Shown one piece after another: positions 6,942-39,657 of a DNA stretch of 64,000 nucleotides. Source of the DNA: Tagaea sp. (GTDB lineage: Bacteria; Pseudomonadota; Alphaproteobacteria; CACIAM-22H2). The first letter of the stretch is position 1. The number at the start of each line of letters is the position of its first letter. Made by a program: the position numbers and the translations under genes. The notes under the pieces were generated by a model. It had not been told where the DNA came from and searched no databases. It worked only from the letters and a program-made list of their open reading frames with translations. The stretch spans positions 2,897,116-2,961,115 of the forward strand of contig OZ257249.1 in the NCBI GenBank assembly GCA_965279565.1, read 5' to 3'.

Positions 6942-6953
6942 ACGGACTTTCGG

Positions 6954-7514: not shown

Positions 7515-7522
7515 GGCTAACC

Positions 7523-9562: not shown

Positions 9563-9586
9563 GGTCGTTGTTCCTTTTCTGCGCGA

Positions 9587-12839: not shown

Positions 12840-12850
12840 TCGCTGCTCCC

Positions 12851-14362: not shown

Positions 14363-14373
14363 CGTGTTCTCCG

Positions 14374-15849: not shown

Positions 15850-16601
15850 GTTCCCAGCGTCCGCAGGCCGGCGACGAGCTCGCCGACCATGGTCGCCAGC
15901 ACGGTCCGTCCCTTTTCGGCGGTCGCCGCGCGCGGATCGCCGCGCACGCCCGAAACACTGTAGTCGGGGCCCGCGGCGGGATCGTCGCGGAAAATCGACG
16001 GTACGTAGAAGACCGTGTTGGGCTCGCTCAGCATGTTGCCGTAGTCTTCGATCGCCCGGTCGAGATGCACGCGCTCGGGCGCGATCGCCATGACCACCGA
16101 CGTTTCCATCTCGTCGGCATGCCCGCCCAGCTTCTGGCGCATCAGCCCGCGATTGGCGCTCCCGAGCGCACGAATATTGGCCACGGGAATGCGCACGCCT
16201 TTTTTCTCGAGAGTCTCGCGCACGACGACGGTGACCGGCCCCTCGGTCGACACGCCGGTGTTGACGATGGCGATGCGCCGCGCCTTGTGCCGAATCAGGC
16301 CGTCGACGATGTCGTGCAGCACGGCGGCAAAAGTTTCCGGGCGCAGATGCTGGCTGCCAGGGTAGCCGACGAAGGCGGGGTAGTAGCCGAAATCGACGAC
16401 GGGTGCCACCAGTACGGGAAGCTCTTTTGCGACACCGTCGCACAGCGCCCGGGCGACGAGATAGTCGGTCTGCATGGGCAGATGCGGCCCATGCTCCTTC
16501 GCCCGCGCGCCGATGGGGATCAGGACGGTCGCGTGCTCGATCCGGGCGGCGACTTCCGGCCAGGTCAGGTCTTCGATCCAGGCACCGGGCGTGACGGTCA
16601 T
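15846..16601 (-). CDS. creatininase-family amidohydrolase
   Basis: 251 aa from the internal ATG (MTVTPGAWIEDLTWPEVAARIEHATVLIPIGARAKEHGPHLPMQTDY...). GGAG SD present. ATGA overlap with the upstream hydrolase gene. Confidence 0.8.
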   Translation of the reverse strand: MTVTPGAWIEDLTWPEVAARIEHATVLIPIGARAKEHGPHLPMQTDYLVARALCDGVAKELPVLVAPVVDFGYYPAFVGYPGSQHLRPETFAAVLHDIVDGLIRHKARRIAIVNTGVSTEGPVTVVVRETLEKKGVRIPVANIRALGSANRGLMRQKLGGHADEMETSVVMAIAPERVHLDRAIEDYGNMLSEPNTVFYVPSIFRDDPAAGPDYSVSGVRGDPRAATAEKGRTVLATMVGELVAGLRTLGT

Positions 16602-17689: not shown

Positions 17690-17699
17690 CGGGTTTCCG

Positions 17700-18634
17700 T
17701 CAGTTCGGGAAATGGCAGCGGACGAGATGGCTGGCACGGCGCTCGACGAGGACGGTATCCTCGATGCGGCAGCGCGCCTGCGCCTTGGGGCAGCGCGGAT
17801 GGAAATGGCATCCGGTCGGCCGGTCCCGCGCGCTCGGAATCTCGCCGGCAAGCGGCGGCGGTGCAATGGAATCCGCCGTCGGCTCGGGGACGGCCGCGAT
17901 CAGCGCCTGGGTATAGGGGTGGGCGGGCCGCTCGAAGATGTCGGCTTCGCTGCCAAGTTCGACGATGCGGCCCAGATACATCACGGCGACCCGGTCGCCG
18001 ACATGCCGGACGGCGCCGAGGTTGTGCGAGATGAACAGCATGCTGAGTCCGAACTGTGCGCGCAGGTCGCGCAGCAGGTTCAGGACCTGGGCCTGGACGG
18101 ACACGTCGAGCGCCGACGTCGCCTCGTCGCAGACGACGATGCGCGGATTGGAGGCGAGAGCGCGCGCGATCGCGATGCGTTGGCGTTGTCCGCCCGAGAA
18201 GGCATGGGGATAGCGTTCGCCCGCATCCGCCGGCATGCCGACGATCGACAGCATCTCGTCCACGCGCCCGGCGCGCGCGCCGGCGTCGACGCCGGCGGCG
18301 CGCATCGGTTCGGCGACGATGTCGCGCACGCGCATGCGGGGATTGAGCGAGGAAACGGGATCCTGGAACACCGCTTGGATCTGGCGACGCAGCGGCCGCA
18401 TACGGGATTCGTCGAGATCCGTCACGTCCTGCCCCGCGATCTCGATGCGGCCGGCGGTGGCTGGCAGGAGCTTGAGGATCATGCGGGCAAGCGTGCTCTT
18501 GCCGCAGCCGGACTCGCCGACCACGCCGAGGGTCTCTCCCTCGGCCAGTGAAAAGCTGACGTCCTCGACGGCGACAAGCGGCCGCACGCCGCTGCCGAAC
18601 GTGCGGCCGAGGCCACTAACCTTCAGCACGTCGC

Positions 18635-25826: not shown

Positions 25827-26666
25827 TCAAGCCGCCGCGACCGGCACAATGCGGCCATAGACCTCCGGCATCGCCGAAATGTCGTCCAGAGCCAGCCCGT
25901 CGACCGTCTCGAGACGTGTCCGGAATGCGCCGCCGGGATCGAGCTCGAGCGTCACGTAGCCGACGAGTTTCGTTCCGAACCGCTCCTGGTGCCCGTCACC
26001 GACGATGAATGCCGTCGACGGCGCCCAGACATGAACCGTCTCGCCGTCTTCGAATCGTCGGTACTGATGCATGTGGCCGCTCGCAATTAGCGTGGGGTGC
26101 TTCGCGCCGAACGCCTCCCAAAGGCGCGTCCGTGCGACGTTCCCGACTCGCCAGTAGGTGCCATCCGGATCGACGATCGCACCGAGGCGAAGCGGCTTGT
26201 GCGCGAAAAGCGCGATATGGCGATCGCCTGCCTCCCGCACCGCGGCGGACAGGAACTCGAACTGCGCCTCCGTATCGGGCCCTGCGGCCCCGGCCAGCAG
26301 CGTGTTGATTCCGATCAACCGCCAGCCCGGCACGTCGCGCACGAAGCGGTCGTCGCCGAAATGGGCGCGATAGCGCGCCAGGCGTGTCGCGTCGAGCGGC
26401 TGCTTGCGGGCGACCGACGGATCGTCGCCGACATCGTGGTTTCCCGGAACGGCGAGCCAGTCGAGCCCGATCCCGGAATGCAGGTCGCGGGCGAAGGCGA
26501 GATCCTCGGCGCTGTCGGCGCCATCCAGCGAGATGTCGCCGGTGTTGATCACGAGATCGGGTTCATCCCTGCGGAGCTTTGCGGCGATTGCCCTGAAATT
26601 TCCGACGAAATGCGGCTTCGAGGGCGAAAGGTGCGTATCGGATATCTGAGCGATCCGGAACGTCAT
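25827..26666 (-). CDS. metallophosphoesterase (calcineurin-like phosphoesterase)
   Basis: MTFRIAQISDTHLS...GDISLDG...GNHD motifs. Start chosen at the ATG preceded by a GGAGAA SD. Confidence 0.8.
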   Translation of the reverse strand: MTFRIAQISDTHLSPSKPHFVGNFRAIAAKLRRDEPDLVINTGDISLDGADSAEDLAFARDLHSGIGLDWLAVPGNHDVGDDPSVARKQPLDATRLARYRAHFGDDRFVRDVPGWRLIGINTLLAGAAGPDTEAQFEFLSAAVREAGDRHIALFAHKPLRLGAIVDPDGTYWRVGNVARTRLWEAFGAKHPTLIASGHMHQYRRFEDGETVHVWAPSTAFIVGDGHQERFGTKLVGYVTLELDPGGAFRTRLETVDGLALDDISAMPEVYGRIVPVAAA

Positions 26667-26727
26667 GGGGTTCTCCATCGGCGATAGGGCGCCGCACGGA
26701 ACGATCCGTGCGGCGCCGCATTGGAAC

Positions 26728-28023
26728 TCAACCGCGCGGGACGAGCTTGCGCACTTCGGTCGCCATGTCGGCCAGGACCTGCTCGGGCGTCGCCCGCTGT
26801 TCGGCTATGCGGGCGAGGTTGTCCACCATCACGTTGGTGACGCGCACCGAGTTGGCGCCCGGGAACGCGTACCAGGGGACCATCAGGTGGACCTGCTTCG
26901 TCGCCGCCTGGAACAGCGGGTTCTCGCGGTAGAAGGCACCCAGATACTTCGGATCGTCGATCGCGATCTGGTTGCACGGCACGTAACCGGTGTTGATCGC
27001 CATCAGCGTCGTGCCCTCGGCCGAGGTCGCGAACTTGACGAACTCCCAAGCCGCGCGCTGCTTGGCCGGATCCTTCGTCACGATCATGGCGCCGGCCCCG
27101 CCGGTCGGCAGGCGGCCCTTCTGCGGATCGATGACCGGCATCGTCGTGGTCTGCAGCACGAAGTTCTTGCCGACCGATTCGGAAATGCCGCGCACCTGTG
27201 CGGTCGTGCGGAACATCATGCCGAGCTTGCCGGCTGCGAACGCCTGCAGGTCGGCCGTGCCCGCGTAGTTGGGCATGCCGCCTTCCTTGACCATCCGGTC
27301 GAGCAGACGCAACGCGGCGAGGCCCTCGGGGCCGTTGAACGCCACATCGGTCTCCTGATCGTTCAGCATGCGCCCGCCATGGCCGTAGAGCAGGGCCGAG
27401 AACATCCAGTCGTCGCCGGGCCAGCGGAAGAACATACCTTCCGTGCCGTCACCCAGCGCCCGGATGCGTTTCGATGCGGCGATGGCGTCATCCCAGTTGT
27501 TCGGGAAGCGCGCCGGATCGAGGTTCGCCCGCTTGAACAGATCGACATTGTAGTAGGAGATCGGGTTGGAGGTCGCGAAGGCGAGGCCCGCCTGCATTCT
27601 CCCGTGGAAGCCGAGACCGAGCAGGGCCGGCGAATAGCCGAGCTTCGCCGGATCGCCCTCCTGCGCCAGCAGCGGGCGCAGGTCGACCGCGATGCCGCGC
27701 TCGGCGAACAGCCGCAGGCGGTTGAGGCCCTGGAACGACACGTCGGGGAGGTTCTGCGTGGCAGCCCCGCGCAGCAGCAGCTGGGCGCCGTCCTCGTAGG
27801 TCGGCGACGGGTTGGCATAGGTCGCCTGGATGTTCGGGAAGCGCTTCGCGAATGCCTCCATCACGGCGTCCTTCGCCGGCTTGAAGATCGCGGGCATCGA
27901 ATAGTGGACGCTGATCGCGACGGGGGCCTGCGCGCGTACGGCCGGGGCAAACAGGGCGGTGGTGGTAGCACCGGCCACGACGGCCAGCGCCGAACGTCGG
28001 GACAGGTTTCTTTCGATTTTCAT
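26728..28023 (-). CDS. sugar ABC transporter substrate-binding protein (family 1)
   Basis: 431 aa with signal peptide MKIERNLSRRSALAVVAGATTTALFAPAVRA and SBP_bac_1 features. Confidence 0.85.
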   Translation of the reverse strand: MKIERNLSRRSALAVVAGATTTALFAPAVRAQAPVAISVHYSMPAIFKPAKDAVMEAFAKRFPNIQATYANPSPTYEDGAQLLLRGAATQNLPDVSFQGLNRLRLFAERGIAVDLRPLLAQEGDPAKLGYSPALLGLGFHGRMQAGLAFATSNPISYYNVDLFKRANLDPARFPNNWDDAIAASKRIRALGDGTEGMFFRWPGDDWMFSALLYGHGGRMLNDQETDVAFNGPEGLAALRLLDRMVKEGGMPNYAGTADLQAFAAGKLGMMFRTTAQVRGISESVGKNFVLQTTTMPVIDPQKGRLPTGGAGAMIVTKDPAKQRAAWEFVKFATSAEGTTLMAINTGYVPCNQIAIDDPKYLGAFYRENPLFQAATKQVHLMVPWYAFPGANSVRVTNVMVDNLARIAEQRATPEQVLADMATEVRKLVPRG

Positions 28024-28054
28024 GTGTATCTCCTTCTCGGTTGGAAACGGGGCC

Positions 28055-28891
28055 TCATCCCTTGAAGCCGGTCATCGTGATGCCTTCGATGAAGCGCCGC
28101 TGGGCGAACAGGAACGCCAGCACCAGCGGTGCGGTGACGAGCGTGGCGGCGGCCATCAGCGCGCCATAATCGTCACCCGCCTCTTCGGCGCGGAAATAGA
28201 GGACACCGAGTGCAGGCGTGTAGAGGTCGCCTTTCGTGACGACGATCAGCGGCCAGAACAGGTCGTTCCAGTGTGCGACGATCGAGAAGATCGCGAAGGC
28301 CGTCGCGGCAGGCCACGCGTTCGGTACCGCGACGCGCCAGACGATCGACGCTTCGCCCATGCCGTCGATCCGTGCCGCGTTCACGAGATCGTCGGGCAGC
28401 GCCTTGAAGAACTGCCGGAACAGGAAGATCGCGAAGACGGAGATCGTGAACGGTGCCGCGAGCGCGGAGTAGGTATTCAGCATTCCCGTGCCGGCGAGCG
28501 CGATGTAGATCGGAATAGCCGGCACGTGCGTCGGGATCAGCAACCCGAGGATGACGAAGGCGAACAGGGTCTCCCGTCCGCGAAAGTGCAGCTTGGCGAG
28601 CGCGTAGCCCGCGGGAAGCGCGAAGGCGAGCTGGAAGGCAAGAATCAGCGCGCAGACGATCAGGCCGTTGATGATGTAGCGGCCGACGGGTACCTCGGCG
28701 AGGACGCGGCCGTAGTTCTCTGCCGCGTACCAGACTTGGGGCCAGAGTGAAAGCGTGGCGCTGAAGACTTCCGACCGCGGCTTGACCGACACCGCGAGCA
28801 TCCACACATATGGCATCAGGAACAGGAGGGCGAGCGTGCCCAGCAGGGCGAGCCGGGGCAGGTCCGCGCGCAGACTGGTGCGGTCAGCCAT
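28055..28891 (-). CDS. sugar ABC transporter permease (MalG-like)
   Basis: 278 aa with an EAA loop (AARIDGMGEASIVWRVAVP). Confidence 0.85.
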   Translation of the reverse strand: MADRTSLRADLPRLALLGTLALLFLMPYVWMLAVSVKPRSEVFSATLSLWPQVWYAAENYGRVLAEVPVGRYIINGLIVCALILAFQLAFALPAGYALAKLHFRGRETLFAFVILGLLIPTHVPAIPIYIALAGTGMLNTYSALAAPFTISVFAIFLFRQFFKALPDDLVNAARIDGMGEASIVWRVAVPNAWPAATAFAIFSIVAHWNDLFWPLIVVTKGDLYTPALGVLYFRAEEAGDDYGALMAAATLVTAPLVLAFLFAQRRFIEGITMTGFKG

Positions 28892-29804
28892 AATGCACCC
28901 GCCTTTCGATGAGGCGCTGCTGGACCAGCATCAGCGCGAGCACGACCGCAAGGAACACGACCGTCATCGCCGACGCGTAGCCCATGCGCAGGAACGTGAA
29001 GCCCTCCTGATAGATCGTGTAGACGATCAGTTCCGACGCCTTCGTCGGTCCGCCCTGCGTCAGGGTGGCAACCGTATCGAAGGTGCGGATGGCGCGGACC
29101 GTCGTGATGAGCACGACGAACAACATCGTCGGCCCGAGCAGCGGCCAGGTCACGAGCCGGAAGCGCTCCCAGACCGAACGAACCCCGTCCATCTCGCTCG
29201 CGGCGTAGAGTTCGCGCGGAATGGCGGTGAGGCCCGCGAGAATGAGCACGAGATTGAACCCGGCGTTCTCCCAGATCGAGATCAGGCCGAGCGAGATGAG
29301 CACCCAGTCGCTGCTTCCCAGCCAGTTCGGGCCCGCGATCCCGAAGCTCCGCAGGACGGCATTCACCGGACCGATCGTGGGGTGCAGCAGGTACTGCCAT
29401 GCCGTCGCCATGGCGACGACGAGCGAGACGACGGGCAGGAAGAATGCGGCGCGGAAGATAGCGCGTCCTCGGGCGTTCGCCTCGATGAGCAACGCAAGAA
29501 GCAGCCCTGCCGCGATCGAGGCCGGTGTCACGATCGCGACGAAGGTCGCCGTGTTCCGTATGGATGTCGCGAAGCCGCGGTCATGCAATAGTTCGGCGAA
29601 ATTCTCCAACCCGACATAGCGTAGCGACGGAAGGCCGAACTCGTAGTCGGTAAGCGCCAGCAGGCAGACGGCCAGAGTCGGCACGAGAAGGAAGCCCGCG
29701 AATGCGAGGATCGCCGGGCCGCACAGCAGCCAACCTGCGATCGCCTCGCCGGTCATCGCCATGCGCCGGCGGCCTGTCCGCCCGACGGCGGCGGCGTCAG
29801 CCAC
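28884..29804 (-). CDS. sugar ABC transporter permease (MalF-like)
   Basis: 306 aa with an EAA loop (ASEMDGVRSVWERFRLVTWP). Start may be an internal ATG. Confidence 0.8.
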   Translation of the reverse strand: MADAAAVGRTGRRRMAMTGEAIAGWLLCGPAILAFAGFLLVPTLAVCLLALTDYEFGLPSLRYVGLENFAELLHDRGFATSIRNTATFVAIVTPASIAAGLLLALLIEANARGRAIFRAAFFLPVVSLVVAMATAWQYLLHPTIGPVNAVLRSFGIAGPNWLGSSDWVLISLGLISIWENAGFNLVLILAGLTAIPRELYAASEMDGVRSVWERFRLVTWPLLGPTMLFVVLITTVRAIRTFDTVATLTQGGPTKASELIVYTIYQEGFTFLRMGYASAMTVVFLAVVLALMLVQQRLIERRVHYG

Positions 29805-30948
29805 TGACTAGCTCCGCGACGCCGCGATGGACGCGGCGGCAGGGAACGCGCCTTCCGTCCGGCCCGAAGAGGAGGGCGCGCGCGGGATCGAAACCGAGTC
29901 GTATCGGCTCGCCGGTCCGGACGTCGAGATCGGTACGGCCTTCGAGGCGCGCGATCGCGGCGGTACCCGTCGCATCGTGGCGGACATGCACGAGAACGGA
30001 GTCCCCGAGGAACTCGACATGCTCGAGCCGCGCCTTGAAACCGCCGCGTGCGAGGACCTGCAGGTCCTCGGGGCGTATCGCGAGTGTCACGGGGCCGGCG
30101 GCAGGTGCGACGAGATCCGTCGGCTCCGAGCCCAACCGGACCAGCCCGTCCGGCCCGGCCTGGGCGGGCAGTGCGTTGATGCTCGGCGAGCCGACGAAGG
30201 CGGCGACGCGCAGGTCGACCGGATCGAGATAGACCTGCTCCGGGCGGCCGATCTGGAGGATCTCGCCACTCATCATCACGGCGACCCGGTCGGCCATCGT
30301 CATCGCCTCCGTCTGGTCATGCGTGACATAGATGGTCGCCGCGCCGACGCGGCGATGGATGTCGACGATCTCCTTGCGCGTCTGGACACGCAGGGACGCG
30401 TCGAGATTCGACAGCGGCTCGTCCAGCAGGAACGCCTTGGGGTGGCGGACGATCGCGCGCCCCAGCGCCACGCGCTGACGCTGGCCGCCGGAGAGTTGGC
30501 CCGGCTTGCGGTCGAGCAGGGGGCCGATCGCGAGCAGATCGGCCGTCCGACGGATTTCGGCGTCGATCTCGGCCAGCCGGGCCCTCGTGCCGGAAAGCAT
30601 CCGCCCGACGAACGGCAGCCTCTGGAACGCGTCGAGGCGGCGCATGACCAGCGGAACCGCCATGTTCTGGCGGGCGGTCAGGTGCGGATAGAGGGCATAG
30701 GACTGGAAAACCATCGCGACATCGCGTTCGGCCGCCCGTCGTTCGGTCACGTCTATGCCGTCGATCCGAACCGCACCGGAATCCGGCGTTTCGAGTCCGG
30801 CCACGATGCGCATGAGGGTCGTCTTGCCGCAGCCCGATGGCCCCACGAGGGCGACGAACTCGCCTTCATCGACCTCGAGCGAGACCCCTCCGAGCGCCAC
30901 GAAGTCACCGAAGCGTTTGACGATGTTCTGGACACTGACCCCGGCCAT
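29797..30948 (-). CDS. sugar ABC transporter ATP-binding protein (MalK/UgpC-like)
   Basis: Walker A GPSGCGKTT, signature LSGGQRQRVALGRA, and a C-terminal TOBE-like domain. Confidence 0.85.
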   Translation of the reverse strand: MAGVSVQNIVKRFGDFVALGGVSLEVDEGEFVALVGPSGCGKTTLMRIVAGLETPDSGAVRIDGIDVTERRAAERDVAMVFQSYALYPHLTARQNMAVPLVMRRLDAFQRLPFVGRMLSGTRARLAEIDAEIRRTADLLAIGPLLDRKPGQLSGGQRQRVALGRAIVRHPKAFLLDEPLSNLDASLRVQTRKEIVDIHRRVGAATIYVTHDQTEAMTMADRVAVMMSGEILQIGRPEQVYLDPVDLRVAAFVGSPSINALPAQAGPDGLVRLGSEPTDLVAPAAGPVTLAIRPEDLQVLARGGFKARLEHVEFLGDSVLVHVRHDATGTAAIARLEGRTDLDVRTGEPIRLGFDPARALLFGPDGRRVPCRRVHRGVAELVSG

Positions 30949-31091
30949 ATCGCTCCTCCGACATTACCGGGCGGACTCTGTCGGCAAGCGGTGACGGAAA
31001 TGCTTTGGTCGAATGAAGATGCCGTTTCAGTCCGATGTGGTTCACGTGACGGCGGGTTGCGTCCGGCGGCGCGTCCGCGCAAAGTCCCGGC

Positions 31092-31805
31092 ATGGCGGAT
31101 ATGGATTCATTGGCCGGAAGCGGGCTTTTCGCGGTCGTTCCCACTCTCGACGCGGCGGCAAGTCTGGAGGCGACGCTTGCCGTAATCCGGACGGCGGAAA
31201 TTCCGATGCTCGTCGTAGATAGCGGATCCGTCGATGCGACGGTCGAAGTCGCGCGCCGGGCGAATGCACGCGTCCTCGCCGCGCCGAGCGGCCGCGGCAA
31301 TCAACTCGCCGCCGGAGCGGCAGCGGCCCTCGAGCAAGGCGGTCGATGGCTCCTGTTTGTCCACGCGGATACACGCCTTCCAGACGGCTGGATTGCCACG
31401 ATCCGCAAGTTCATCGACGCGAACGCGACAGCAAATCGAGCCGGCTATTTCTGCCTCGCCTTCGACGACGCCGGTCCACAAGCGGCGCGAGTTGCTCGGC
31501 TTGCGAACTGGCGGTCGCGTACGTTCGGCCTGCCATACGGGGATCAGACGCTGCTTGTGCCGGCGGAACTCTATCGGGCGGTCGGGGGATACCGGCCGAT
31601 CCCGCTTATGGAAGACGTCGACCTCGTCCGGCGGATCGGGCGCGCGCGTCTCGTCGAAATGGATGGTACCGCGACGACATCGGCAGACCGCTACCGGCGC
31701 GGAGGCTGGTGGCTCCGGCCGGTCCGAAACCTGATCTGCCTCGCGCTCTGGATGGCCGGCGTACCGCCCGAACGGCTGGTCGGCTTCTACCGGGGAAGAC
31801 GATGA
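31092..31805 (+). CDS. family-2 glycosyltransferase resembling 'rSAM/selenodomain-associated transferase 2' (TIGR04283-like)
   Basis: 237 aa with a GT-A fold (VVPTLDAAASLEATL...VVDSGSVDATV...DxD-like MEDVDLVRR). ATGA overlap with the next gene. Confidence 0.65.
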   Translation: MADMDSLAGSGLFAVVPTLDAAASLEATLAVIRTAEIPMLVVDSGSVDATVEVARRANARVLAAPSGRGNQLAAGAAAALEQGGRWLLFVHADTRLPDGWIATIRKFIDANATANRAGYFCLAFDDAGPQAARVARLANWRSRTFGLPYGDQTLLVPAELYRAVGGYRPIPLMEDVDLVRRIGRARLVEMDGTATTSADRYRRGGWWLRPVRNLICLALWMAGVPPERLVGFYRGRR

Positions 31806-32395
31806 GGCCCACTCTCGTGATTTTCGCAAGATTCCCGGCTCTTGGCCGCGTCAAGACCCGTCTCGCCGCCGGCATCGGCGACACCGCCGCGCTCGCCTTC
31901 CATCGGACGACGCTGGAGCGCACATGCCGGATGGCCACGCGCCTGCCGTGGCGCGTCGAACTCCATGTGACGCCAAACGCCACGTCGCGCTTCCCACGCC
32001 TCTGGCCACGTGTCGGGCGCACACGTCCGATCGCGCAGGGGAGCGGCGATCTTGGCGCGAGGATGGTCCGCGCGTTTGCCCGCCGTTGCGGACCGACGCT
32101 TCTGGTCGGCTGCGACATTCCTGAGATGACAGTCGGCCACCTGCGCTCTGCTGCATTGCTGCTGGGAGCAAGCGACGCGGTCTTCGGGCCGGCCAAGGAC
32201 GGAGGTTTCTGGCTCGCCGGCTTCCGCAACGGTCGGCTGGCCCGCAGGGCATTCGCAGGCGTACGCTGGTCGAGTCCGCATGCTCTGGCCGACTGCCTTG
32301 CCAATCTTCGGGGCCGGCGCATGGCCTTTGCCCATGTTCTGGACGACATCGACGATCGAAGCGATCTTCTGGCGTGGCGGAGGCGTACGGCATGA
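31802..32395 (+). CDS. DUF2064 protein resembling 'rSAM/selenodomain-associated transferase 1' (TIGR04282-like)
   Basis: Real start at the internal ATG (MRPTLVIFARFPALGRVKTRLAAGIG...GCDIPEMT...GPAKDGGFWLAGF), which are hallmark DUF2064 motifs. The listed ORF 31346.. carries an Arg-rich spurious N-terminus. Confidence 0.65.
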   Translation: MRPTLVIFARFPALGRVKTRLAAGIGDTAALAFHRTTLERTCRMATRLPWRVELHVTPNATSRFPRLWPRVGRTRPIAQGSGDLGARMVRAFARRCGPTLLVGCDIPEMTVGHLRSAALLLGASDAVFGPAKDGGFWLAGFRNGRLARRAFAGVRWSSPHALADCLANLRGRRMAFAHVLDDIDDRSDLLAWRRRTA

Positions 32396-32450
32396 AACCA
32401 TTTTTTCTGCGTGCGCGAACCAGATACGGGGTTTGGCGGAAGGTGGAGAC

Positions 32451-33392
32451 ATGCGGTCAGGGGAGATAGGGAAGCCAACGATGAAGTTCGTCGATCCGCA
32501 ATTCACGCTTTCCGGACAGAGTCGAGCGAAGGTGCGGCTGAAAGCGCTGCGCACGCTCTGGCTCAATACCGGTACGCTCTGCAACATCGCTTGCGCCAAC
32601 TGCTACATCGAGTCTTCGCCGCGCAACGACCGCCTTTCCTACTTGCAGCGCGACGAAGCGGCTCGCTTCGTCACCGAAGGCGTGGCGCTTTCCCCCGAAC
32701 TTGCCGAAATCGGATTCACCGGCGGCGAGCCATTCATGAATCCCGACATCATCGGAATGCTTGCCGACGCCCTCGACGCGGGCCTGCGCGTGCTCGTGCT
32801 GACCAACGCAATGAAGCCGATGTGGAACCGGCGCGAAGCTCTCGGCGCGCTGCTGCGCGACCATCCGGATCGGCTTATGCTGCGCGTCTCGCTCGACCAC
32901 TACACGCGCGAACAGCACGAGCAGGTGCGCGGTGCCGACACGTGGGAACCCGCGATCGAAGGGCTGAAATGGCTGGCCTCTGCCGGTGTCGCGCTTGCGG
33001 TCGCCGCGCGAAAGATCGGACCGGAAGGCGAGCCGGCGCTGCGTGCCGGCTTTGCGCGACTCTTCGAAGCGCAAGTCATCCCGGTCGATGCTGCGGATCG
33101 CCAGCGCCTCGTCCTCTTTCCCGAAATGGACGCGAACGCTGACGTGCCGGAGATCAGCGACGCTTGCTGGGGCATACTCGGAAAATCTCCCGACGACGTC
33201 ATGTGTTCGAGCGCAAGGATGGTCGTGCGCCGCAGGGGATCGAGCCGGGCAAGCGTCGTCGCCTGCACGCTGCTGCCCTATGACGAGGCATTCGATCTTG
33301 GGCCGACGCTTGCCGATTCCACGGGGCCGGTCCCGCTCAATCACCGCCACTGCGCCAAGTTCTGTGTTCTCGGCGGAGCTGCCTGCAGCTAG
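32451..33392 (+). CDS. radical SAM protein with a C-terminal Cys-rich domain (rSAM/Cys-rich 'selenodomain' family-like)
   Basis: CNIACANCY (CxxxCxxC) radical-SAM motif near the N-terminus. The C-terminal region is Cys-rich (CWGILG...MCSS...VVACTLLPYDE...HRHCAKFCVLGGAACS). Start at the ATG with an AGGTGGAG SD. Confidence 0.7.
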   Translation: MRSGEIGKPTMKFVDPQFTLSGQSRAKVRLKALRTLWLNTGTLCNIACANCYIESSPRNDRLSYLQRDEAARFVTEGVALSPELAEIGFTGGEPFMNPDIIGMLADALDAGLRVLVLTNAMKPMWNRREALGALLRDHPDRLMLRVSLDHYTREQHEQVRGADTWEPAIEGLKWLASAGVALAVAARKIGPEGEPALRAGFARLFEAQVIPVDAADRQRLVLFPEMDANADVPEISDACWGILGKSPDDVMCSSARMVVRRRGSSRASVVACTLLPYDEAFDLGPTLADSTGPVPLNHRHCAKFCVLGGAACS

Positions 33393-33468
33393 GCGGTGCG
33401 CCAGGAAGTTCTCCAAAACGTAACAATGCAATCACGCCCGGCTCACAGAATCAGCCTACGCAGGCGTA

Positions 33469-34755
33469 TTGCCCAAGTTTACGGAAAAGAGAACGCACGT
33501 GTTTGCAGATCGAATCGAATCCGGGTCCGCCACGCTGCGGAACATCAATGCGGCGGTGAACCGGAGCGCTGTGCTGTCGAAAGTCGGTCTTCAGGAACGG
33601 CTCTTCTCGCTCCTGTTTTCCGGGCTGGTCTATTCCCAGATATGGGAAGATCCGGCGATCGATCTCGAAGCCTTGAATCTTGGTCCCAACGACCGGGTCA
33701 TCGCGATTGCATCGGGCGGATGCAATGCACTCAGCTATCTCTCCGCGGCTCCCGCAAGAATCACGGCTGTCGATCTAAATTTCCATCACGTCGCGCTCAA
33801 CCGCCTGAAGATTTCGGCAATCCGGTATCTCCCGGACCATGACGAACTTTTCCGATTTCTCGGGAAGGCCGATTCGCCCGAGAATCTGGAGCTCTACGCC
33901 AGCCATCTGCGTGGCCGTCTCGATCCGGACTCGCGCGCATACTGGGACGGGCGCGACATCCTAGGGCGCCGCCGGATCGGGATGTTCGCCAGAAATGTCT
34001 ACCGCAAGGGCCTTCTCGGCAGATTCATCGGCGCCGGGCATGCGATCGCGCGGCTTCACGGATGCGATCCGTCCCGATTGCTGACCGCGAGATCCTTGCG
34101 CGAACAGCGCGAGTTTTTCGAGGCGGAGATCCAGCCAATCCTGCGTTCGCGCGTCGTCCGGTTTCTGGCCGACCAGCCATTCTCGCTCTACGGACTCGGG
34201 ATACCACCAGCTCAGTATGCGGCATTGCTCTCGTCGGCATCCGAAGGGATGAAGATGGCGGATGTTCTGGAGCAGCGCCTACGGCGATTGGCCTGCGCCT
34301 TTCCGGTCGCCGACAACTACTTTGCTTGGCAAGCCTTCGGACGGCGCTATCCGGACGGAGTGGACCGGACCGTGCCGCCATATCTCGCGCGCGCCAACTA
34401 CGCCCGGATCCAGTCGACGATCGAGCGGATCGAAATTCGCCACGGCAATCTGATTGACGAACTTGAGCGCGCCGAGAATGCGTCGTTAGACGCCTATGTT
34501 CTGCTTGATGCGCAGGACTGGATGACGAATGCCGTCCTGAACCGGCTCTGGACCGCGATTCATCGGACCGCGAGGCTGGGTGCGCGCGTCATTTTCCGAA
34601 CCGCCGCCGAGCCGTCCTTGCTCCCTGGGCGCGTCGATCCAAGGATCCTCGGAAAATGGCGCTACGATGCCGAGCGCTGCCGCGACTGGACCAACAGGGA
34701 CCGTTCGGCGATCTATGGCGGCTTCCATCTCTACCGTCTCGACGAAGCCGCATGA
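33469..34755 (+). CDS. btaA: BtaA-like DUF3419 protein (S-adenosylmethionine:diacylglycerol 3-amino-3-carboxypropyl transferase family)
   Basis: About 420 aa, DUF3419/BtaA-like (LFSGLVYSQIWEDPAIDLEAL...). Start ambiguous: TTG at 33469 per the ORF track, or GTG at about 33499. ATGA overlap with btaB. Confidence 0.65.
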   Translation: MPKFTEKRTHVFADRIESGSATLRNINAAVNRSAVLSKVGLQERLFSLLFSGLVYSQIWEDPAIDLEALNLGPNDRVIAIASGGCNALSYLSAAPARITAVDLNFHHVALNRLKISAIRYLPDHDELFRFLGKADSPENLELYASHLRGRLDPDSRAYWDGRDILGRRRIGMFARNVYRKGLLGRFIGAGHAIARLHGCDPSRLLTARSLREQREFFEAEIQPILRSRVVRFLADQPFSLYGLGIPPAQYAALLSSASEGMKMADVLEQRLRRLACAFPVADNYFAWQAFGRRYPDGVDRTVPPYLARANYARIQSTIERIEIRHGNLIDELERAENASLDAYVLLDAQDWMTNAVLNRLWTAIHRTARLGARVIFRTAAEPSLLPGRVDPRILGKWRYDAERCRDWTNRDRSAIYGGFHLYRLDEAA

Positions 34756-35420
34756 ATCCGATACTCGCGACCTCGAATGGCGACGCGATGGACCGCATCT
34801 ATCGCTGGCAGGTGCCAATCTACGATCTGACCCGTAAATACTATCTGGTGGGGCGGGATCGGTTGATCGGCGAACTCGACCCGCCGCCGGATGGCTCGAT
34901 TCTCGAAATCGGCTGCGGCACCGGCCGGAATCTGCTTTCCGTTTCGAGGATGTACCAGCGCGTAGAGCTTTTCGGGATCGATGTCAGTGCCGTGATGCTC
35001 GAAACCGCCCGTTCTTCTGCCCGCATGTCGAAGTACGGTGCGCGCATCGCGTTCGCGCAGGCCGATGCCGGCACGTTCGAACCGATGGCCCTGTTCGGGC
35101 GCCGGAGCTTCGACCGGATATTCATCTCCTATGCGCTTTCGATGATTCCAGATTGGCGGGCTGCGCTCGATCGGGCCATGGCGGCACTGCAACCGGATGG
35201 ACGGCTCCTGATCGTCGACTTCGGCGAAATGGAGCGGCTGCCCGGGCCGCTGCGATGCGGTTTCGGGAGATGGCTTGCCGCCTTTGCGGTCAAGCCGCGG
35301 GTGGATCTCGCACGGGTACTCGCGGTCAAGGCGGCCAGAGACGGCCTTGTGTCTCGTACGGAATCGCTTCTCGGCGGCTATGCCATCTATGCCACCGTGC
35401 GGCAAATGCCGAACGACTGA
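34752..35420 (+). CDS. btaB: BtaB-like class I SAM-dependent methyltransferase
   Basis: 222 aa from the internal ATG (MNPILATSNGDAMDRIYRWQVPIYDLTRKYY...) with SAM motif I ILEIGCGTGRN. Gene order btaA-btaB matches the DGTS betaine-lipid pathway. Confidence 0.65.
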   Translation: MNPILATSNGDAMDRIYRWQVPIYDLTRKYYLVGRDRLIGELDPPPDGSILEIGCGTGRNLLSVSRMYQRVELFGIDVSAVMLETARSSARMSKYGARIAFAQADAGTFEPMALFGRRSFDRIFISYALSMIPDWRAALDRAMAALQPDGRLLIVDFGEMERLPGPLRCGFGRWLAAFAVKPRVDLARVLAVKAARDGLVSRTESLLGGYAIYATVRQMPND

Positions 35421-35424
35421 GCAT

Positions 35425-35665
35425 CGATGTTCCTTGATTGCCTTTGGGGCGCTGGCGAGTAGCCACAAAGGCATTCGACGGCTTCGAATCCTGCACCCTT
35501 CCCCGTCGACTTCCAAATCTCGCTTGGGGCTCAATGAGGCTATTTGGGGTGGCGATGACGGAAAGCCGTTGTGGAAGGGATGGGCTCGCCATCCGATGGA
35601 GCTTCAATGCTCTTGGTTTCCACTCGCTTCCCTTAAATGCCTAAAATCGTCGAATTTCCGCCGCA
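35425..35665 (+). repeat. degenerate remnants of the repeat family: a leader-like start GTTCCTTGATTGCC with T-arm-like CGACGGCTTCGAATCCTGCACCC (35476-35498), and a 5'-only leader copy E (about 35610-35665: CTCTTGGTTTCCACTCGCTTCCCTTAAATGCC...)
   Basis: Shares the TTGGTTTCCACTC...TTCCCTT leader start with copies A-D, but the tRNA-like module is missing or decayed. Sits between btaB and the SDR genes. Confidence 0.45.
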
Positions 35666-35679
35666 GATGGCGGGGAATT

Positions 35680-36435
35680 TCAAGTGATGCAAAGTCCGCC
35701 GTCGATCCGCACGATCTCGCCGTTGACATAGGCCGACGCGTCGGAGGCGAGGAACAGGATCGTGCGCGCGACGTCGTCCGGAGTTCCCTCGCGGCGCAGC
35801 GGCACGCGCGCCGACGTCTTGGCGCGCGCGGCCTTGTTGTTGCGCCGCGTCTGGAGCGGCGTGTCGATCAGGCCGGGGGCCACGGCGTTGACGCGGATGC
35901 CGTCGGGCCCGACTTCCTTGGCGAGCGAGCGCACGAACGAAGCGACCGCGGCCTTCGCCGCCGCATAGGCCGAAGCGCCGTGGCCGCCGCCGTCGAACGC
36001 GGCCATCGAGCTCATCGCGACGATGGTGCCTTTGCGGCCCGCCATCGCGCGGATCGCGGCGCGGCAGGTGAGGAACACCGAGATCAGGTTCGTGTCGAAC
36101 GTACTGTACCAGTGGGCGAGGTCCGCGTCGGCCACGCGCACGCGGCCGAGCAGATCGCCCGCGTTCGCGACGACGATGTCGGGCGTACCGAGGCGGCGTA
36201 CGACGGTCGCGAACAGGCGCTTCGTGTCGGCCTCGCGCGTCAGGTCGGCGCGGACCGCCAGGCAGCTCTGCCCGGCGCGTTTGGCCGTGCGCTCGATCCG
36301 GGCGGCATTCGCCGCACTGGTGCGGAACGTGAAGGCGACGCGCGCACCGGCAGCAAGGAACGCGCGCACGGTGGCTTCGCCGATGCCCGACGCACCGCCG
36401 GTGACGACAACGACCTTGTCGCGCAGGCCATCCAT
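35680..36435 (-). CDS. SDR-family oxidoreductase
   Basis: 251 aa from the internal ATG (MDGLRDKVVVVTGGASGIGEA...). Catalytic YxxxK (YAAAKAAV), NAG motif. Confidence 0.8.
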   Translation of the reverse strand: MDGLRDKVVVVTGGASGIGEATVRAFLAAGARVAFTFRTSAANAARIERTAKRAGQSCLAVRADLTREADTKRLFATVVRRLGTPDIVVANAGDLLGRVRVADADLAHWYSTFDTNLISVFLTCRAAIRAMAGRKGTIVAMSSMAAFDGGGHGASAYAAAKAAVASFVRSLAKEVGPDGIRVNAVAPGLIDTPLQTRRNNKAARAKTSARVPLRREGTPDDVARTILFLASDASAYVNGEIVRIDGGLCIT

Positions 36436-36440
36436 CGCCG

Positions 36441-37220
36441 CTAGCGCCCGCCCGTCACGTCGACGAAGGCCGCGGTCGCGAAAGCGGCCTTGTCCGACAG
36501 CAGGAACAGCGCGAAATCCGCGATCTCGTCGGGGCGGCCGGGGCGGTTGAGCGGGATCATCTTCGCCATGTTGGCGTAGTGGTCGGCCCCGTCGACGTCG
36601 TGCGCCGGCGTCATGATCGTCGCCGGGCGGATGACGTTGACGCGGATTCCTTCGGGTGCCACCTCGACCGCGACGTTGAGGCTGAAGCCGTCGACCGCCG
36701 CCTTCGCCGCGGCGTAGAGCACGAGCCCGCCCACGCCGTTCTTGCGGCTGGTCGGGCCGCCGCGGCGCGCGCAGTCCGACGAGATGTTGACGATGGCACC
36801 ACCCTTGCCGCCGCGCTTCGTGGACATGCGCTTGATCGCCTCGCGCGTGCACATGATCGTCGAATAGAGATTGAGCGCCGTCACGGCCTCGATCTGCGCG
36901 AGGCTCGCGTCCTCGGTGCGGCAGCCATCGGGGCCGAGCGATATCTTCCCGCCGCCGGCATTGTTGACGAGCGCGGTGACCGGGCCCAGCTCGCGGTCGA
37001 TCGTCGCGAACATGGCGACGACTTCGTTTTCCCTCGTCACGTCGGCCTTGATCGCGACCGCCTTGCCGCCGCCCGCGCGGATATCGGCGACGACCTTGTC
37101 GGCCTCCATCGGCGACTGGTTGTAATTCACCGCGACGCGGTAGCCTTCGCTGCCGGCCTTGCGGCAGATGGCGGCCCCGATGCCGCGGCTGCCGGCCGTC
37201 ACCAGAATGACGCGATCCAT
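36441..37220 (-). CDS. SDR-family oxidoreductase (tandem to the previous)
   Basis: Start at MDRVILVTAGSRGIGAAI with a GGGAGG SD. Catalytic YAAAKAAV motif. Confidence 0.8.
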   Translation of the reverse strand: MDRVILVTAGSRGIGAAICRKAGSEGYRVAVNYNQSPMEADKVVADIRAGGGKAVAIKADVTRENEVVAMFATIDRELGPVTALVNNAGGGKISLGPDGCRTEDASLAQIEAVTALNLYSTIMCTREAIKRMSTKRGGKGGAIVNISSDCARRGGPTSRKNGVGGLVLYAAAKAAVDGFSLNVAVEVAPEGIRVNVIRPATIMTPAHDVDGADHYANMAKMIPLNRPGRPDEIADFALFLLSDKAAFATAAFVDVTGGR

Positions 37221-37326
37221 GCGCTTTACCTCCCGAACTGGAGCCTTTCCCGGCTTGACGCATTGCCCGGGCGGACTTAGCATCCCTTAGAATAGGTCAG
37301 ACCTATTTAGTCAAGTTATCTGTCCA

Positions 37327-38124
37327 TTGCGCAGCGAGGTCCAGTTGGCGGTCAAGCCCCTCAAGAAGCTCGAACGCGGCGAGGCGACGGGTGGCGAAAC
37401 GGCCGGCAAGGGCGGCTCGCGGCCGTTCTTCGTGGCCCAGATCGGCCAGCGCAAGCGTCTCTACGAAGAGATCGCGGCGCGCATCGAACAGCATCTGCGC
37501 AGCGAGAATTTCCAGCCCGGCGATCGCCTGCCGCCCGAGCGCGAGCTTGCCCAGCAGCTCGGCGTCAGCCGCCCGTCGCTGCGCGAGGCGATGATCGCGC
37601 TCGAGACCGCAGGTCTGATCGAAGTGCTGGTCGGCAGCGGCACGTTCGTGCGCGCCCTCGCCCCCGAAGGCTTCAAGTTGCCGTGGGCGCGCGCCGGCGA
37701 TCCGGGCCCGGGCGTGCGCGAACAGTTCGAGGCACGCAAGCTGATCGAGCCGGAACTGGCCTTCCTCGCCGCCGAGTTCGTCACGCCCGAGGAAATCGAG
37801 ATCCTGCACAAGGCCGTCTATGCGGCGGCCGCGAAATTCGCGCAGGGCGAGCTCGCCGAGGCGGAGGACTACACGTATCACGTGACGCTCGCGGAAGCCT
37901 CGCGCAACACCGTGCTCGCGATGCTGATCCGCCACCTGTGGGACCTGCGCCAGGGCGAGATGTGGTTCAAGCTGCGCGCGCGCGTCGTGCTGCCCGAACA
38001 CCGCATGGAAGTGATCGCCGACCGGCGCGAGATCGTCGAGGCGCTGCGCCGGCGCGACGGCGCCACCGCGAAGGCCGTGATGGTGCGCTACCTGCAGCGG
38101 GCCGAGCGCCGATTCTTCGATTAA
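37327..38124 (+). CDS. GntR-family transcriptional regulator with FadR-like C-terminal (FCD) domain
   Basis: wHTH region RLYEEIAARIEQHLRSENFQPGDRLPPERELAQQLGVSRPSLREAM plus an FCD-type all-helical C-terminal domain. Exact start uncertain. Confidence 0.8.
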   Translation: MRSEVQLAVKPLKKLERGEATGGETAGKGGSRPFFVAQIGQRKRLYEEIAARIEQHLRSENFQPGDRLPPERELAQQLGVSRPSLREAMIALETAGLIEVLVGSGTFVRALAPEGFKLPWARAGDPGPGVREQFEARKLIEPELAFLAAEFVTPEEIEILHKAVYAAAAKFAQGELAEAEDYTYHVTLAEASRNTVLAMLIRHLWDLRQGEMWFKLRARVVLPEHRMEVIADRREIVEALRRRDGATAKAVMVRYLQRAERRFFD

Positions 38125-38242
38125 TGGCCTGACCTATCAGCTTGTCGATCTGCCTGTTTGCTGGGCGAAGTTTCGTGGATAGCTCATAATATACAAGTAA
38201 TTTCAGTTATTTGATTGAATTCAATCTCCGGCATTGCGTCGC

Positions 38243-38282
38243 TTGACTCTCCAGTAGTGAAAAAATAGATTGGTCTTACCAA
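38243..38282 (+). promoter_or_regulatory. candidate sigma70-type promoter (TTGACT-N17-TAGATT) overlapped by a GntR-type palindrome TTGGTCTTACCAA
   Basis: Seen in the AT-rich intergenic region about 80-110 nt upstream of the binding-protein gene. TGGT-N3-ACCA matches the general GntR/FadR operator pattern. A second perfect palindrome GATTGAATTCAATC lies at 38213-38226. Confidence 0.35.
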
Positions 38283-38358
38283 CAGATGACCGGATCGTCG
38301 GCCGTCCGGTTCAACGCGATCCTGCCGGCAAAGGCGGGACGCCAGGGAGGAAATCGCG

Positions 38359-39657
38359 ATGAAGTCCGCATCCGTGCAGGCGAGCCTGCTGTCCTTCGGC
38401 CTCTGCGCCGCCCTCGGCGTTTCGGCCGCGAACGCGCAGACCACCGTCACGATGTGGAGTTTCCTCGATCCGGCGAAGACCAGCGGGCGCGAAGTGGCGC
38501 TGCGCACGATGATCGAGAATTTCGAGAAGGCGAACCCCGGCGTGAAGGTCCGCGTCGAGCCGCAGATCTTCTCAGAGCTGATGACGAAGTTCCTCGCCGC
38601 CAACAACACCGGCACGGCCCCCGACCTGATCCTCGTCAACACCGAGAACATGGGCGCCTTCGCCAAGTCGGGTGCGGGCGCCGACCTCAACGCGCTGTTC
38701 ATCGACAAGTGGCCGCGCGGCCAGCAGGAGGATTTCTTCGTGCGCGCCGGCTGGGATGCCGGGCTCGTCGGCGGCAAGCGATATGCCGTGCCGCTGTTCC
38801 ACGCGACGACCAGCATCTTCTATCGCAAGGACCTGCTCGCCGCGGCCGGCATCGATCCCAAGTCGATCAAGACGTGGGACCAGCTTGCCGACGCCGCGAA
38901 GAAGCTGACGGGTGCCAGGGACGCCGGCGGGCGCGTCGACGTGTGGGGCTTCGGCACGCCGCTGTCGACCGAACGCACCGGCGGCACCACCGCCTTCTCC
39001 GCGATGATGTTCGCGGGCGAGGGGATGTGGAAGGACTGCAAGCCGCTCTACGCGTCGCCCACGGGCCTGCGTGCGCTTCAGTGGCACACCGACCTGATTG
39101 CCAAGGCGGGTGCCATGCCGCGCGAGACGATCGCCAACCATGTCGACGACGTCGTCGACCAGTTCACCGCCGGGCGCTACGCGATGGCCGTGATGCCGTT
39201 CGCCCGCTTCGAGAACGTGCGCGCGCAGGCCAAGTGGGACGGCCAGCAGCTCGCCATCCTGCCCTGGCCGAACTGGACGGCCGACAAGGTCGGGCCGCAG
39301 CAGGTCCAGGGCTGGTACGCCGGCATCTGGAGCAAGTCGCGCCGCCTGCCGGAAGCCGCGAAATTCCTCGAGCACATGATCAATCCGGAATCCGTGCGCC
39401 TCTGGTCGGAAGTGGGCGGGCAGGTGCCCACGCGCTTCTCGGTCTGGCAGCAGCCGCAGTTCCGCGACGCCAAGTTCGCCTTCATGGAGACGGTCGTCGA
39501 CGCGTGGAAGGCGTGGAGCTTCCAGATCCCGACCGAGTGCACGACCACGCAGTTCGATGCCGACCTCAACCGTGCGGTCCAGCGCGTGCTCGTCGGCGGC
39601 ATCGCGCCGGCGGCCGCCATGCAGGAAGCCGAGCGCGCCTTCCTCGGCCGCCAGTAG
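38359..39657 (+). CDS. sugar ABC transporter substrate-binding protein (family 1)
   Basis: 432 aa with signal peptide MKSASVQASLLSFGLCAALGVSAANA. Paralog of the binding protein at 45387..46676. Confidence 0.85.
   Translation: MKSASVQASLLSFGLCAALGVSAANAQTTVTMWSFLDPAKTSGREVALRTMIENFEKANPGVKVRVEPQIFSELMTKFLAANNTGTAPDLILVNTENMGAFAKSGAGADLNALFIDKWPRGQQEDFFVRAGWDAGLVGGKRYAVPLFHATTSIFYRKDLLAAAGIDPKSIKTWDQLADAAKKLTGARDAGGRVDVWGFGTPLSTERTGGTTAFSAMMFAGEGMWKDCKPLYASPTGLRALQWHTDLIAKAGAMPRETIANHVDDVVDQFTAGRYAMAVMPFARFENVRAQAKWDGQQLAILPWPNWTADKVGPQQVQGWYAGIWSKSRRLPEAAKFLEHMINPESVRLWSEVGGQVPTRFSVWQQPQFRDAKFAFMETVVDAWKAWSFQIPTECTTTQFDADLNRAVQRVLVGGIAPAAAMQEAERAFLGRQ

Follow-up and report, generated by a model that had tools for sequence, protein, structure and literature searches.

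An arsenosugar-type gene cassette with a candidate stand-in for ArsS, joined to predicted betaine-lipid genes in Tagaea sp.

A stretch of 64,000 nucleotides from Tagaea sp. (GenBank assembly GCA_965279565.1, contig OZ257249.1), referred to below as the window, carries at 31092-33392 three consecutive genes for a family-2 glycosyltransferase (GT2), a DUF2064 protein and an enzyme of the radical S-adenosylmethionine (SAM) type, followed directly by genes resembling btaA and btaB. On balance, and by a modest measure only, we consider it probable that this locus is a minimal cassette of arsenosugar type, in which ArsS has been replaced by a distant and differently built relative from a large unnamed radical-SAM family. 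The locus is described here as an arsenosugar-type cassette with a probable stand-in for ArsS, joined to betaine-lipid genes, and its functional part is claimed by gene association only; an arsenic-adenosylating role is the best reading of the window enzyme and was assigned in the same way.

ArsS combines a 5'-deoxyadenosyl radical with dimethylarsenite, DMAs(III), to give 5'-deoxy-5'-dimethylarsinoyl-adenosine, DDMAA (PMC13598754). As the first committed step towards arsenosugars, this reaction draws on the products of ArsM, whose gene is co-transcribed with that of ArsS in Synechocystis (bioRxiv 10.1101/2022.09.23.509062; PMC12159101). A sequence-only reading of the window had described the three genes as a cassette of two transferases and a 'selenodomain' radical-SAM protein, with neither function, substrate nor product known. 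It recognised the right kind of system; the radical-SAM family was misnamed, and the statement on function and substrate is outdated, as ArsS is reported to adenosylate dimethylarsenite and NCBIfam names all three of the families invoked for arsenosugar biosynthesis.

The cassette and its counterparts in ArsS loci

The five genes and the region upstream of them are arranged as follows.

31092-31805, + strand: GT2 glycosyltransferase of the TIGR04283 family (237 amino acids, aa; Pfam Glycos_transf_2)
31802-32395, + strand: DUF2064/TIGR04282 protein with a predicted CofC/MobA-like nucleotide-diphospho-sugar transferase fold (197 aa)
32451-33392, + strand: radical-SAM enzyme of an unnamed family, not ArsS (313 aa; only PF04055)
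33469-34755, + strand: btaA-like gene (DUF3419; S-adenosylmethionine:diacylglycerol 3-amino-3-carboxypropyl transferase family; 428 aa, TTG start; PF11899, 362.7 bits)
34752-35420, + strand: btaB-like SAM-dependent methyltransferase gene (222 aa; matched by the models Methyltransf_31, _25, _11 and _12)
30949-31091, no strand: intergenic region of 143 bp separating the GT2 gene from a divergent UgpC-like ABC ATPase gene; putative promoter region for the five-gene block

The positions and kinds of the first three genes agree with those given in the sequence-only reading, as do the details it had listed: the DUF2064 start codon (ATG at 31802) overlaps the GT2 stop by ATGA, the DUF2064 protein contains FARFPALGRVKTRLA, GCDIPEMT and DGGFWL, and the radical-SAM protein contains CNIACANCY. 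The radical-SAM open reading frame (ORF) opens at 32280 and ends at 33392, and its likely start is the ATG at 32451, because GGAAGGTGGAG precedes it and because the resulting 313 aa equal the length of an 87%-identical homologue. This ORF has no in-frame stop, so that all candidate selenocysteine (Sec) positions are Cys, and the tail is indeed Cys-rich, with six of the nine Cys in the last 75 residues. The btaA-like gene begins 76 bp 3' of the radical-SAM gene on the same strand, and the btaB-like start overlaps the btaA stop by ATGA, in line with the adjacency reported before. Neither selenium nor arsenic genes were found among about 40 window ORFs scanned against Pfam or NCBIfam, which bears out the earlier remark on absent selenium genes; tblastn with an ArsM-like query gave no match in the window, nor did a scan of it for tRNA genes and Rfam families.

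Both transferases belong to the TIGRFAMs families to which they had been assigned. The GT2 protein scores 187.4 bits with NCBIfam model TIGR04283 (cut-off 182; model positions 4-221 of 221) and 41.3 bits with PF00535 (cut-off 23.3), a match that places a GT2 (GT-A) catalytic domain in it, and its secondary matches among the hidden Markov models (HMMs) are polyprenyl-phosphate sugar transferases. The DUF2064 protein reaches 148.4 bits with TIGR04282 (cut-off 134; model positions 1-189 of 189) and 88.8 bits with PF09837; it also matches Protein Data Bank (PDB) entry 3CGX, a 'putative nucleotide-diphospho-sugar transferase' (E 7.8e-16), and weakly CofC. NCBIfam names both families 'arsenosugar biosynthesis glycosyltransferase', TIGR04282 as a hypothetical-equivalog label. 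As regards glycosyl transfer by TIGR04283 in arsenosugar synthesis, the family name rests on gene association, and no functional report on arsenosugar-synthesis glycosyltransferases was found in the literature searched.

The main evidence for a link to arsenic is gene context. In the locus of Afipia sp. 1NLS2 the order is window-family radical-SAM enzyme, ArsM-like methyltransferase (NF008823, 175 bits; other ArsM models match too), PHO4, VTT/DedA, MerA-like FAD oxidoreductase, TIGR04283 (198.1 bits), TIGR04282 (134.2 bits), AhpD-like, DUF427 and methylthioadenosine (MTA) phosphorylase (485.7 bits). In Cupriavidus sp. KK10, a canonical ArsS locus consists of PHO4, ArsM-like, AhpD-like, ArsS, MerA-like, VTT, GT2, TIGR04282, MTA phosphorylase (MTAP), a second radical-SAM gene and DUF547. 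Apart from accessories (DUF427 in the former; the second radical-SAM gene and DUF547 in the latter), the two gene sets are the same, and the window radical-SAM family replaces ArsS one for one in the Afipia locus. Four further ArsS loci, from Thiodictyon, Burkholderia thailandensis and two metagenomic contigs, have the same partners, among them fatty-acid-hydroxylase-like, VTT, Pyr_redox, methyltransferase, GT2, DUF2064, MTAP, a second radical-SAM protein resembling Tes/TrsS, and DUF547.

Compared with the ArsS/ArsM arsenosugar system, as characterised in Synechocystis sp. PCC 6803, the window thus has both transferase families in common, and at the family level the likeness extends to the wider partner set (ArsM-like, MTA phosphorylase, MerA-like, VTT/DedA, AhpD-like, DUF547 and the second radical-SAM protein). 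The neighbourhood of TIGR04282, TIGR04283 and arsM is likewise seen at the family level, whereas the window has only the two transferases adjacent; it lacks arsM and is joined to btaAB instead, and its radical-SAM protein fails the ArsS HMM and has no DUF3641.

Partner genes were counted by targeted tblastn within a 10-kb radius in 80 species-representative loci of the window family, 59 of which have at least 5 kb of sequence on both sides; de novo ORF clustering of the neighbours was set aside, as shadow ORFs of high-GC DNA dominated it. At least one partner was present in 40 of the 80 loci, and the individual counts were as follows.

TIGR04282-like: 24 of 80 loci
GT2: 21 of 80
MerA-like reductase: 20 of 80
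fatty-acid-hydroxylase-like: 13 of 80
specific metallophosphoesterase: 12 of 80
VTT/DedA: 11 of 80
ArsM-like methyltransferase: 5 of 80
AhpD-like: 4 of 80
DUF547: 4 of 80
PhnD-like binding protein: 3 of 80
ArsS: 0 of 80

For a gene present in one or two copies in a genome of several Mb, the chance of falling within 10 kb may be estimated at about 1%.

Gene fusions point in the same direction. TIGR04282 is joined to the radical-SAM domain in P0259 (TIGR04282, 163.6 bits) and DUF2064 in P0354, a metallophosphoesterase is joined to the radical-SAM domain in P0073, P0257 and P0258, and in the distant relative P0392 the partner is an ArsM-like methyltransferase (NF008823, 192.9 bits). The phosphoesterase domain of P0073 shares 56% identity with a Roseomonas phosphoesterase, whose gene lies four genes downstream from that of the radical-SAM enzyme. 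Some of these fusions could be frameshift joins of adjacent genes. An apparent fusion to an HD domain (P0260) was not counted, its radical-SAM C-terminal motif being garbled (YCAPVLRAGRRCLLGGG for HCARFCVLGGASCS) in a way typical of a frameshift, and was taken as adjacency only; in that organism a gene for an HD/YfbR-like 5'-deoxynucleotidase lies directly downstream of the radical-SAM gene.

It should be added that the second radical-SAM protein (about 460 aa) and the DUF547 protein, which recur in canonical ArsS loci, also occur next to the window family in a Roseomonas locus (L090). The second radical-SAM gene lies at 7610-8989 in L090, at 12122-13513 in L092 and from about 14506 in L093; among NCBIfam models it comes nearest to the TrsS (seleno)protein (100 bits) and to the tetraether lipid synthase Tes (90 bits), both far under the cut-offs.

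The radical-SAM family compared with ArsS

A word-based search with the window radical-SAM protein returned at least 8,000 scored candidates, those listed being 55-87% identical, and 385 representatives reach E 1e-30 after clustering at 50%; the family is conserved and compact. Among species-representative genomes the carriers are mostly Alphaproteobacteria (Rhodospirillales, Acetobacteraceae, Stellaceae, Sphingomonadales, Caulobacterales, Hyphomicrobiales and Rhodobacterales), with a few in Gamma- or Betaproteobacteria, Gemmatimonadota and Latescibacterota, and the RefSeq label of a family member is simply 'radical SAM protein'. On plasmid pHP-187 of Marinobacter adhaerens HP15 (L091, 9001-9871) a divergent homologue of 31.7% identity was seen at a place with no listed gene, covering 94% of the query in two segments; this could be either a pseudogene or a member of an intermediate family.

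Of the nine Cys in the window protein, three form the CX3CX2C motif (C44-NIA-C48-AN-C51-Y); the protein ends in LNHRHCAKFCVLGGAACS. The six Cys of the tail (C239, C252, C272, C301, C305 and C312) are invariant across 25 homologues. Pfam recognised only PF04055 (53.7 bits); PF12345/DUF3641, which stands beside PF04055 in all 120 ArsS proteins listed in a comparison set retrieved with a Thiodictyon ArsS, gave no match. With the ArsS model TIGR04167 the protein scored 65.8 bits against a cut-off of 300, over model positions 3-148 of 303. Its best NCBIfam match, with the highest score for the catalytic core, is the Rv1681 (MoeX) family, NF049973; the 99.7 bits reached are again far under the cut-off of 380, and only model positions 73-219 of 326 are covered. 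That family is, to our knowledge, uncharacterised and gives no functional lead. By HMM score, ArsS comes directly after it and is the closest of the characterised radical-SAM families.

Profile comparison by hhalign of 25 family members with 20 ArsS proteins aligned residues 11-184 only (probability 97.6%, E 3.8e-12), and on this sequence evidence the catalytic cores are taken as homologous. The C-terminal halves alone gave no significant hhalign match (P = 0.053, probability 1%), and with an HMM built from the C-terminal half of ArsS none of 120 family members scored above 1.9 bits, so that the statistical alignment of the C-terminus with the Cys/Sec-rich domain, on which the sequence-only reading had staked its assignment, was not obtained. 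In sum, HMM, Pfam, hhalign and the C-terminal HMM were all negative for the C-terminal domain and rule out membership in ArsS/TIGR04167; of the three family assignments made earlier, those to TIGR04283 and TIGR04282 passed and that of the radical-SAM protein to the 'rSAM/Cys-rich selenodomain' family did not.

A residual likeness to ArsS nevertheless extends beyond the core. Both proteins have about 315 aa, a homologous core and a Cys-rich tail that reaches the C-terminus, and their ends, HCAKFCVLGGAACS in the window protein and HCYGCTAGQGSSCGG in ArsS, resemble each other in the pattern HC...C...GxxC. In a MAFFT alignment, which carries no statistical support, five of the six tail Cys are collinear with ArsS (contexts VMC, V-x-x-C, HC, C and the terminal GxxC): C252 pairs with C250 in VMC, C272 with C265, C301 with C304 after His, C305 with C307 and C312 with C315 in GxxC. 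The window protein differs in its extra invariant Cys, C239, and in the lack of the ArsS core residues C102 and C132. The selenocysteine motif of ArsS-type selenoproteins is GxxU (PMC13188914), and the Sec-equivalent residue of the window protein would be C312, whose GAAC falls in register with GxxU; this is how far the alignment proposed in the sequence-only reading could be taken, as the register lacks statistical support. No selenocysteine form of the window family was seen in 88 loci, the terminal position being Cys and not TGA. The alignment of the relative P0392 (34% identical) with TIGR04167 spans model positions 2-300 of 303 but scores only 60 bits; the protein combines CYLC, as in ArsS, with IMC...YACTL, as in the window family. 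Taken together, a distant homology of the whole protein with ArsS, as distinct from membership, appears probable.

In the AlphaFold2 (AF2) model of the radical-SAM protein (pLDDT 85.5), residues 255-259 and 268-270 form strands and residues 299-306 a helix. The best Foldseek matches were BlsE (E 2.9e-10, TM 0.57), then SkfB, DesII, SuiB and anSME, all twitch or SPASM enzymes, and the twitch model NF033640 gave 39.6 bits (cut-off 170). These predicted-fold matches fit a C-terminal domain that would hold an auxiliary cluster in a twitch/SPASM-like manner.

Linkage to btaAB and codon usage

In the window clade (radical-SAM proteins at least 74% identical) the order GT2-DUF2064-radical SAM is always kept; it recurs in every readable relative, and the arrangement is therefore not due to chance. 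The position of btaAB varies.

window (radical SAM 100%): trio, then btaA-btaB
L094 and L095 (87%): trio, then btaA-btaB
P0244 contig (78% cluster): trio, a phytase-like gene, then btaAB at a distance of about 4 kb downstream
L082-L084 (76%): btaA-btaB, then trio, with gaps of 15-46 bp
L081 and L096 (74-75%): trio without btaAB

The trio is thus linked to btaAB in three gene arrangements, and since the linkage survives rearrangement, shared regulation or function of the trio and btaAB is suggested. It is specific to the window clade: btaA was near the radical-SAM gene in none of 80 more distant family loci. In L081, the public calls at 6708-7990 are two short minus-strand genes; tblastn placed there, on the plus strand and directly upstream of the radical-SAM gene, GT2 and DUF2064 genes, each 63% identical to its window counterpart at the protein level, and the public calls are probably an error in high-GC DNA.

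The window btaAB genes are predicted to serve synthesis of the betaine lipid diacylglyceryl trimethylhomoserine (DGTS). As in the btaAB operon known from Rhodobacter sphaeroides and rhizobia, a DUF3419 gene of the BtaA family is followed by a small SAM methyltransferase gene with a stop/start overlap; what differs is that in the window they form one block with the three cassette genes. No description of btaAB joined to the three-gene cassette was found in the literature searched.

Codon usage sets the block apart. The GC content at third codon positions (GC3) of the five genes is 0.71-0.76 (GT2 0.71, btaA 0.71, btaB 0.74), as against 0.80-0.93 in the flanks (25827-30948 and 35680-39657), or 0.84-0.93 when the metallophosphoesterase gene is left out, and for this reason the five genes look like one unit unlike their surroundings; overall GC falls to about 0.61 over btaAB. 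These values suggest that the five genes were acquired together, or else that a different pressure acts on their codon usage.

The Pho box CTGTCATNNNNCTGTCAT, allowing up to three mismatches, had one distant match in the window, at 9091, which is below chance expectation, and no Pho-box-like repeat was present in 30949-31091. A scan of 30800-35750 found no promoter, including no sigma-70-like one in 30949-31091, and three terminator-like sites, all inside btaA or btaB and no more than expected by chance. A regulatory role of 30949-31091 is hence suggested by its position only.

Besides the cassette, the ORF scans of the window revealed kdp genes, ABC transporters, Tct transporters and sugar-acid genes. 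Divergent from the cassette, on the minus strand at 25827-30948, lie a UgpBAEC-like ABC transporter and a calcineurin-type metallophosphoesterase; the latter (25827-26678) was rejected as a partner of the system, being unrelated to the type fused to or neighbouring the radical-SAM family. The potassium-transport locus at 3526-11296 on the minus strand (KdpA, a KdpB-like P-type ATPase, sensor kinase KdpD and response regulator KdpE) is unrelated to the cassette. At 12126-18551 three GC3-supported ORFs without a Pfam match (12126-12626, 16065-16607 and 17673-18551) stand among few recognisable genes.

Proposed pathway, alternatives and significance

For the arsenosugar-type cassette we infer the following chemistry in all its steps. 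The radical-SAM enzyme would reductively cleave SAM at the [4Fe-4S] cluster bound by CX3CX2C and, by analogy with ArsS, add the 5'-deoxyadenosyl radical to a trivalent methylated arsenical to yield 5'-deoxy-5'-dimethylarsinoyl-adenosine; its Cys-rich C-terminal domain probably holds an auxiliary cluster, and the terminal C312 may hold the arsenical. An enzyme of the MTA-phosphorylase type, whose gene is missing from the window ORFs scanned but is a direct neighbour in the loci of Afipia, Cupriavidus and Burkholderia, would then remove adenine to leave a ribose-1-phosphate derivative, which the CofC/MobA-like DUF2064 protein (TIGR04282) could activate as a nucleotide sugar. Finally, the inverting GT2 (TIGR04283) would transfer the sugar to a glycerol-type or lipid acceptor and so produce the beta-riboside typical of arsenosugars. 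As the trio and btaAB make one five-gene block, the trio would be expected to be co-expressed with synthesis of the phosphorus-free betaine lipid. Low phosphate is the condition in which arsenate enters through phosphate transporters. A more ambitious proposal, which we regard as speculative and rather improbable, is that the block is a single pathway for an arsenic-containing, phosphorus-free membrane lipid made in phosphate starvation, with an arsenosugar placed on a diacylglycerol-type acceptor alongside or on the betaine-lipid route; its first enzyme would come from a second family of arsenic-adenosylating radical-SAM enzymes that diverged independently.

Several points weigh against an arsenosugar function. 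Half of the 80 family loci show none of the partner genes nearby, and the scanned window ORFs include no arsM, MTAP or ars resistance gene, so that the arsenic link of the window locus comes from its relatives. Gene association is what supports the predicted functions of the window family and of the transferase families, TIGR04282 bears its 'arsenosugar' name only as a hypothetical equivalog, and the literature searched on DUF2064, TIGR04282 and TIGR04283 held no functional work. The C-terminal domain lacks significant similarity to DUF3641, as the hhalign and HMM comparisons above indicate, and the substrate could thus differ from that of ArsS. The lipid-related partners and btaAB would fit a lipid product with or without arsenic, and given that neither a Pho box nor a promoter was found upstream, phosphate regulation is suggested only by the btaAB linkage and by the known behaviour of btaAB in other bacteria.

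It is conceivable, although in our opinion unlikely, that the five genes make a membrane lipid or head group free of arsenic and phosphorus, with the radical-SAM enzyme adenosylating a lipid or sugar, as HpnH does with hopene, or modifying it in another way, and the DUF2064 and GT2 proteins building a glycolipid beside DGTS in phosphate starvation. The linkage of the trio to btaAB in three arrangements of the clade, the common codon bias of the five genes, the polyprenyl-phosphate sugar transferases among the secondary matches of GT2 and the lack of arsM in the window would all agree with this, as would the lipid-related partners that recur in both window-family and ArsS loci (fatty-acid-hydroxylase/OlsE-like, VTT/DedA and the second radical-SAM protein with Tes among its best matches). 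The hopanoid system HpnH/HpnG/HpnI follows a like logic: a radical-SAM enzyme adds 5'-deoxyadenosyl, an enzyme of the purine-nucleoside-phosphorylase family removes adenine and a GT2 elaborates the ribose-derived chain. However, the HpnH model was not among the 25 best of 36 NCBIfam matches of the window protein, and on the relative P0392 it (TIGR03470) reached only 48.6 bits against a cut-off of 225; the ORF scans found no hopanoid genes in the window. Moreover, the btaAB linkage is limited to one clade (0 of 80 genome loci), while the partner set equals that of canonical ArsS loci gene for gene, including the ArsM-like protein, to a domain of which P0392 is even fused.

The same adenosyl transfer to another acceptor, be it monomethylarsenite, a species of antimony, selenium or tellurium, or a reduced phosphorus compound, seems to us still less likely. 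A change of acceptor would explain why the C-terminal domain is not detectably DUF3641, and the MerA-like and AhpD-like redox partners suit several metalloids equally. In some loci the neighbours of the radical-SAM gene are a phosphonate/phosphite-binding ABC transporter of the PhnD type and a dedicated metallophosphoesterase that occurs in fusion with the radical-SAM protein as well, and the PhnD-like protein matches a putative selenate-binding model at 82.7 bits, under the cut-off. Yet the only methyltransferase partners are ArsM-like, the PhnD-type transporter could equally carry methylarsonate as an analogue of methylphosphonate, and nothing points to a specific alternative element. Two further readings have very little to recommend them. 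The first takes the locus for a bona fide TIGR04167 system in an all-Cys form with unknown function; it has on its side the two transferases of the partner families and the ArsS-like HC...C...GxxC end, but the HMM and profile tests have already refuted it as a claim of membership (65.8 against 300 bits with only the core aligned, no PF12345, and no significant result with the C-terminus by hhalign or HMM), and a function has meanwhile been reported for the TIGR04167 family. The other, to which we likewise attach hardly any probability, sees in the radical-SAM protein a twitch/SPASM-type maturase of a peptide or cofactor, whose position beside the transferases would have no functional meaning. 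Among the closest solved folds there are indeed peptide maturases (SkfB, SuiB and PqqE) as well as the sulfatase maturase anSME, and half of the family loci have no recognisable partner. Against this, the gene order is conserved, there are fusions to TIGR04282 and to the phosphoesterase, no precursor-peptide-like gene was noted beside the radical-SAM gene in the called-gene tables, and all SPASM/twitch HMM scores are far under their cut-offs.

Arsenosugars and arsenolipids are major arsenic species of aquatic food webs, and in the literature searched only ArsM and ArsS have been assigned experimentally as enzymes of the pathway, so that surveys of it would rely on the ArsS model. If the window family does take the functional place of ArsS, it escapes such surveys, with its at least 8,000 database matches mainly from soil and freshwater Alphaproteobacteria, and the capacity for arsenosugar synthesis would be underestimated. 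Two differently built enzymes that maybe form the same As-C bond would allow, by comparison, to see which features of the Cys-rich tail matter, including the position that is Sec in some ArsS, and the compact three-gene form offers a convenient start for the first biochemical functions of DUF2064/TIGR04282 and TIGR04283. The recurrent linkage to btaAB provides a testable tie between the remodelling of lipids in phosphate starvation and organoarsenic synthesis. Should the proposal of a single arsenic-lipid pathway hold, non-photosynthetic alphaproteobacteria would put arsenic in membrane lipids as a means of sparing phosphate and not only for detoxification; and if the functional claim made for the cassette is true, the known range of organoarsenic synthesis would widen.

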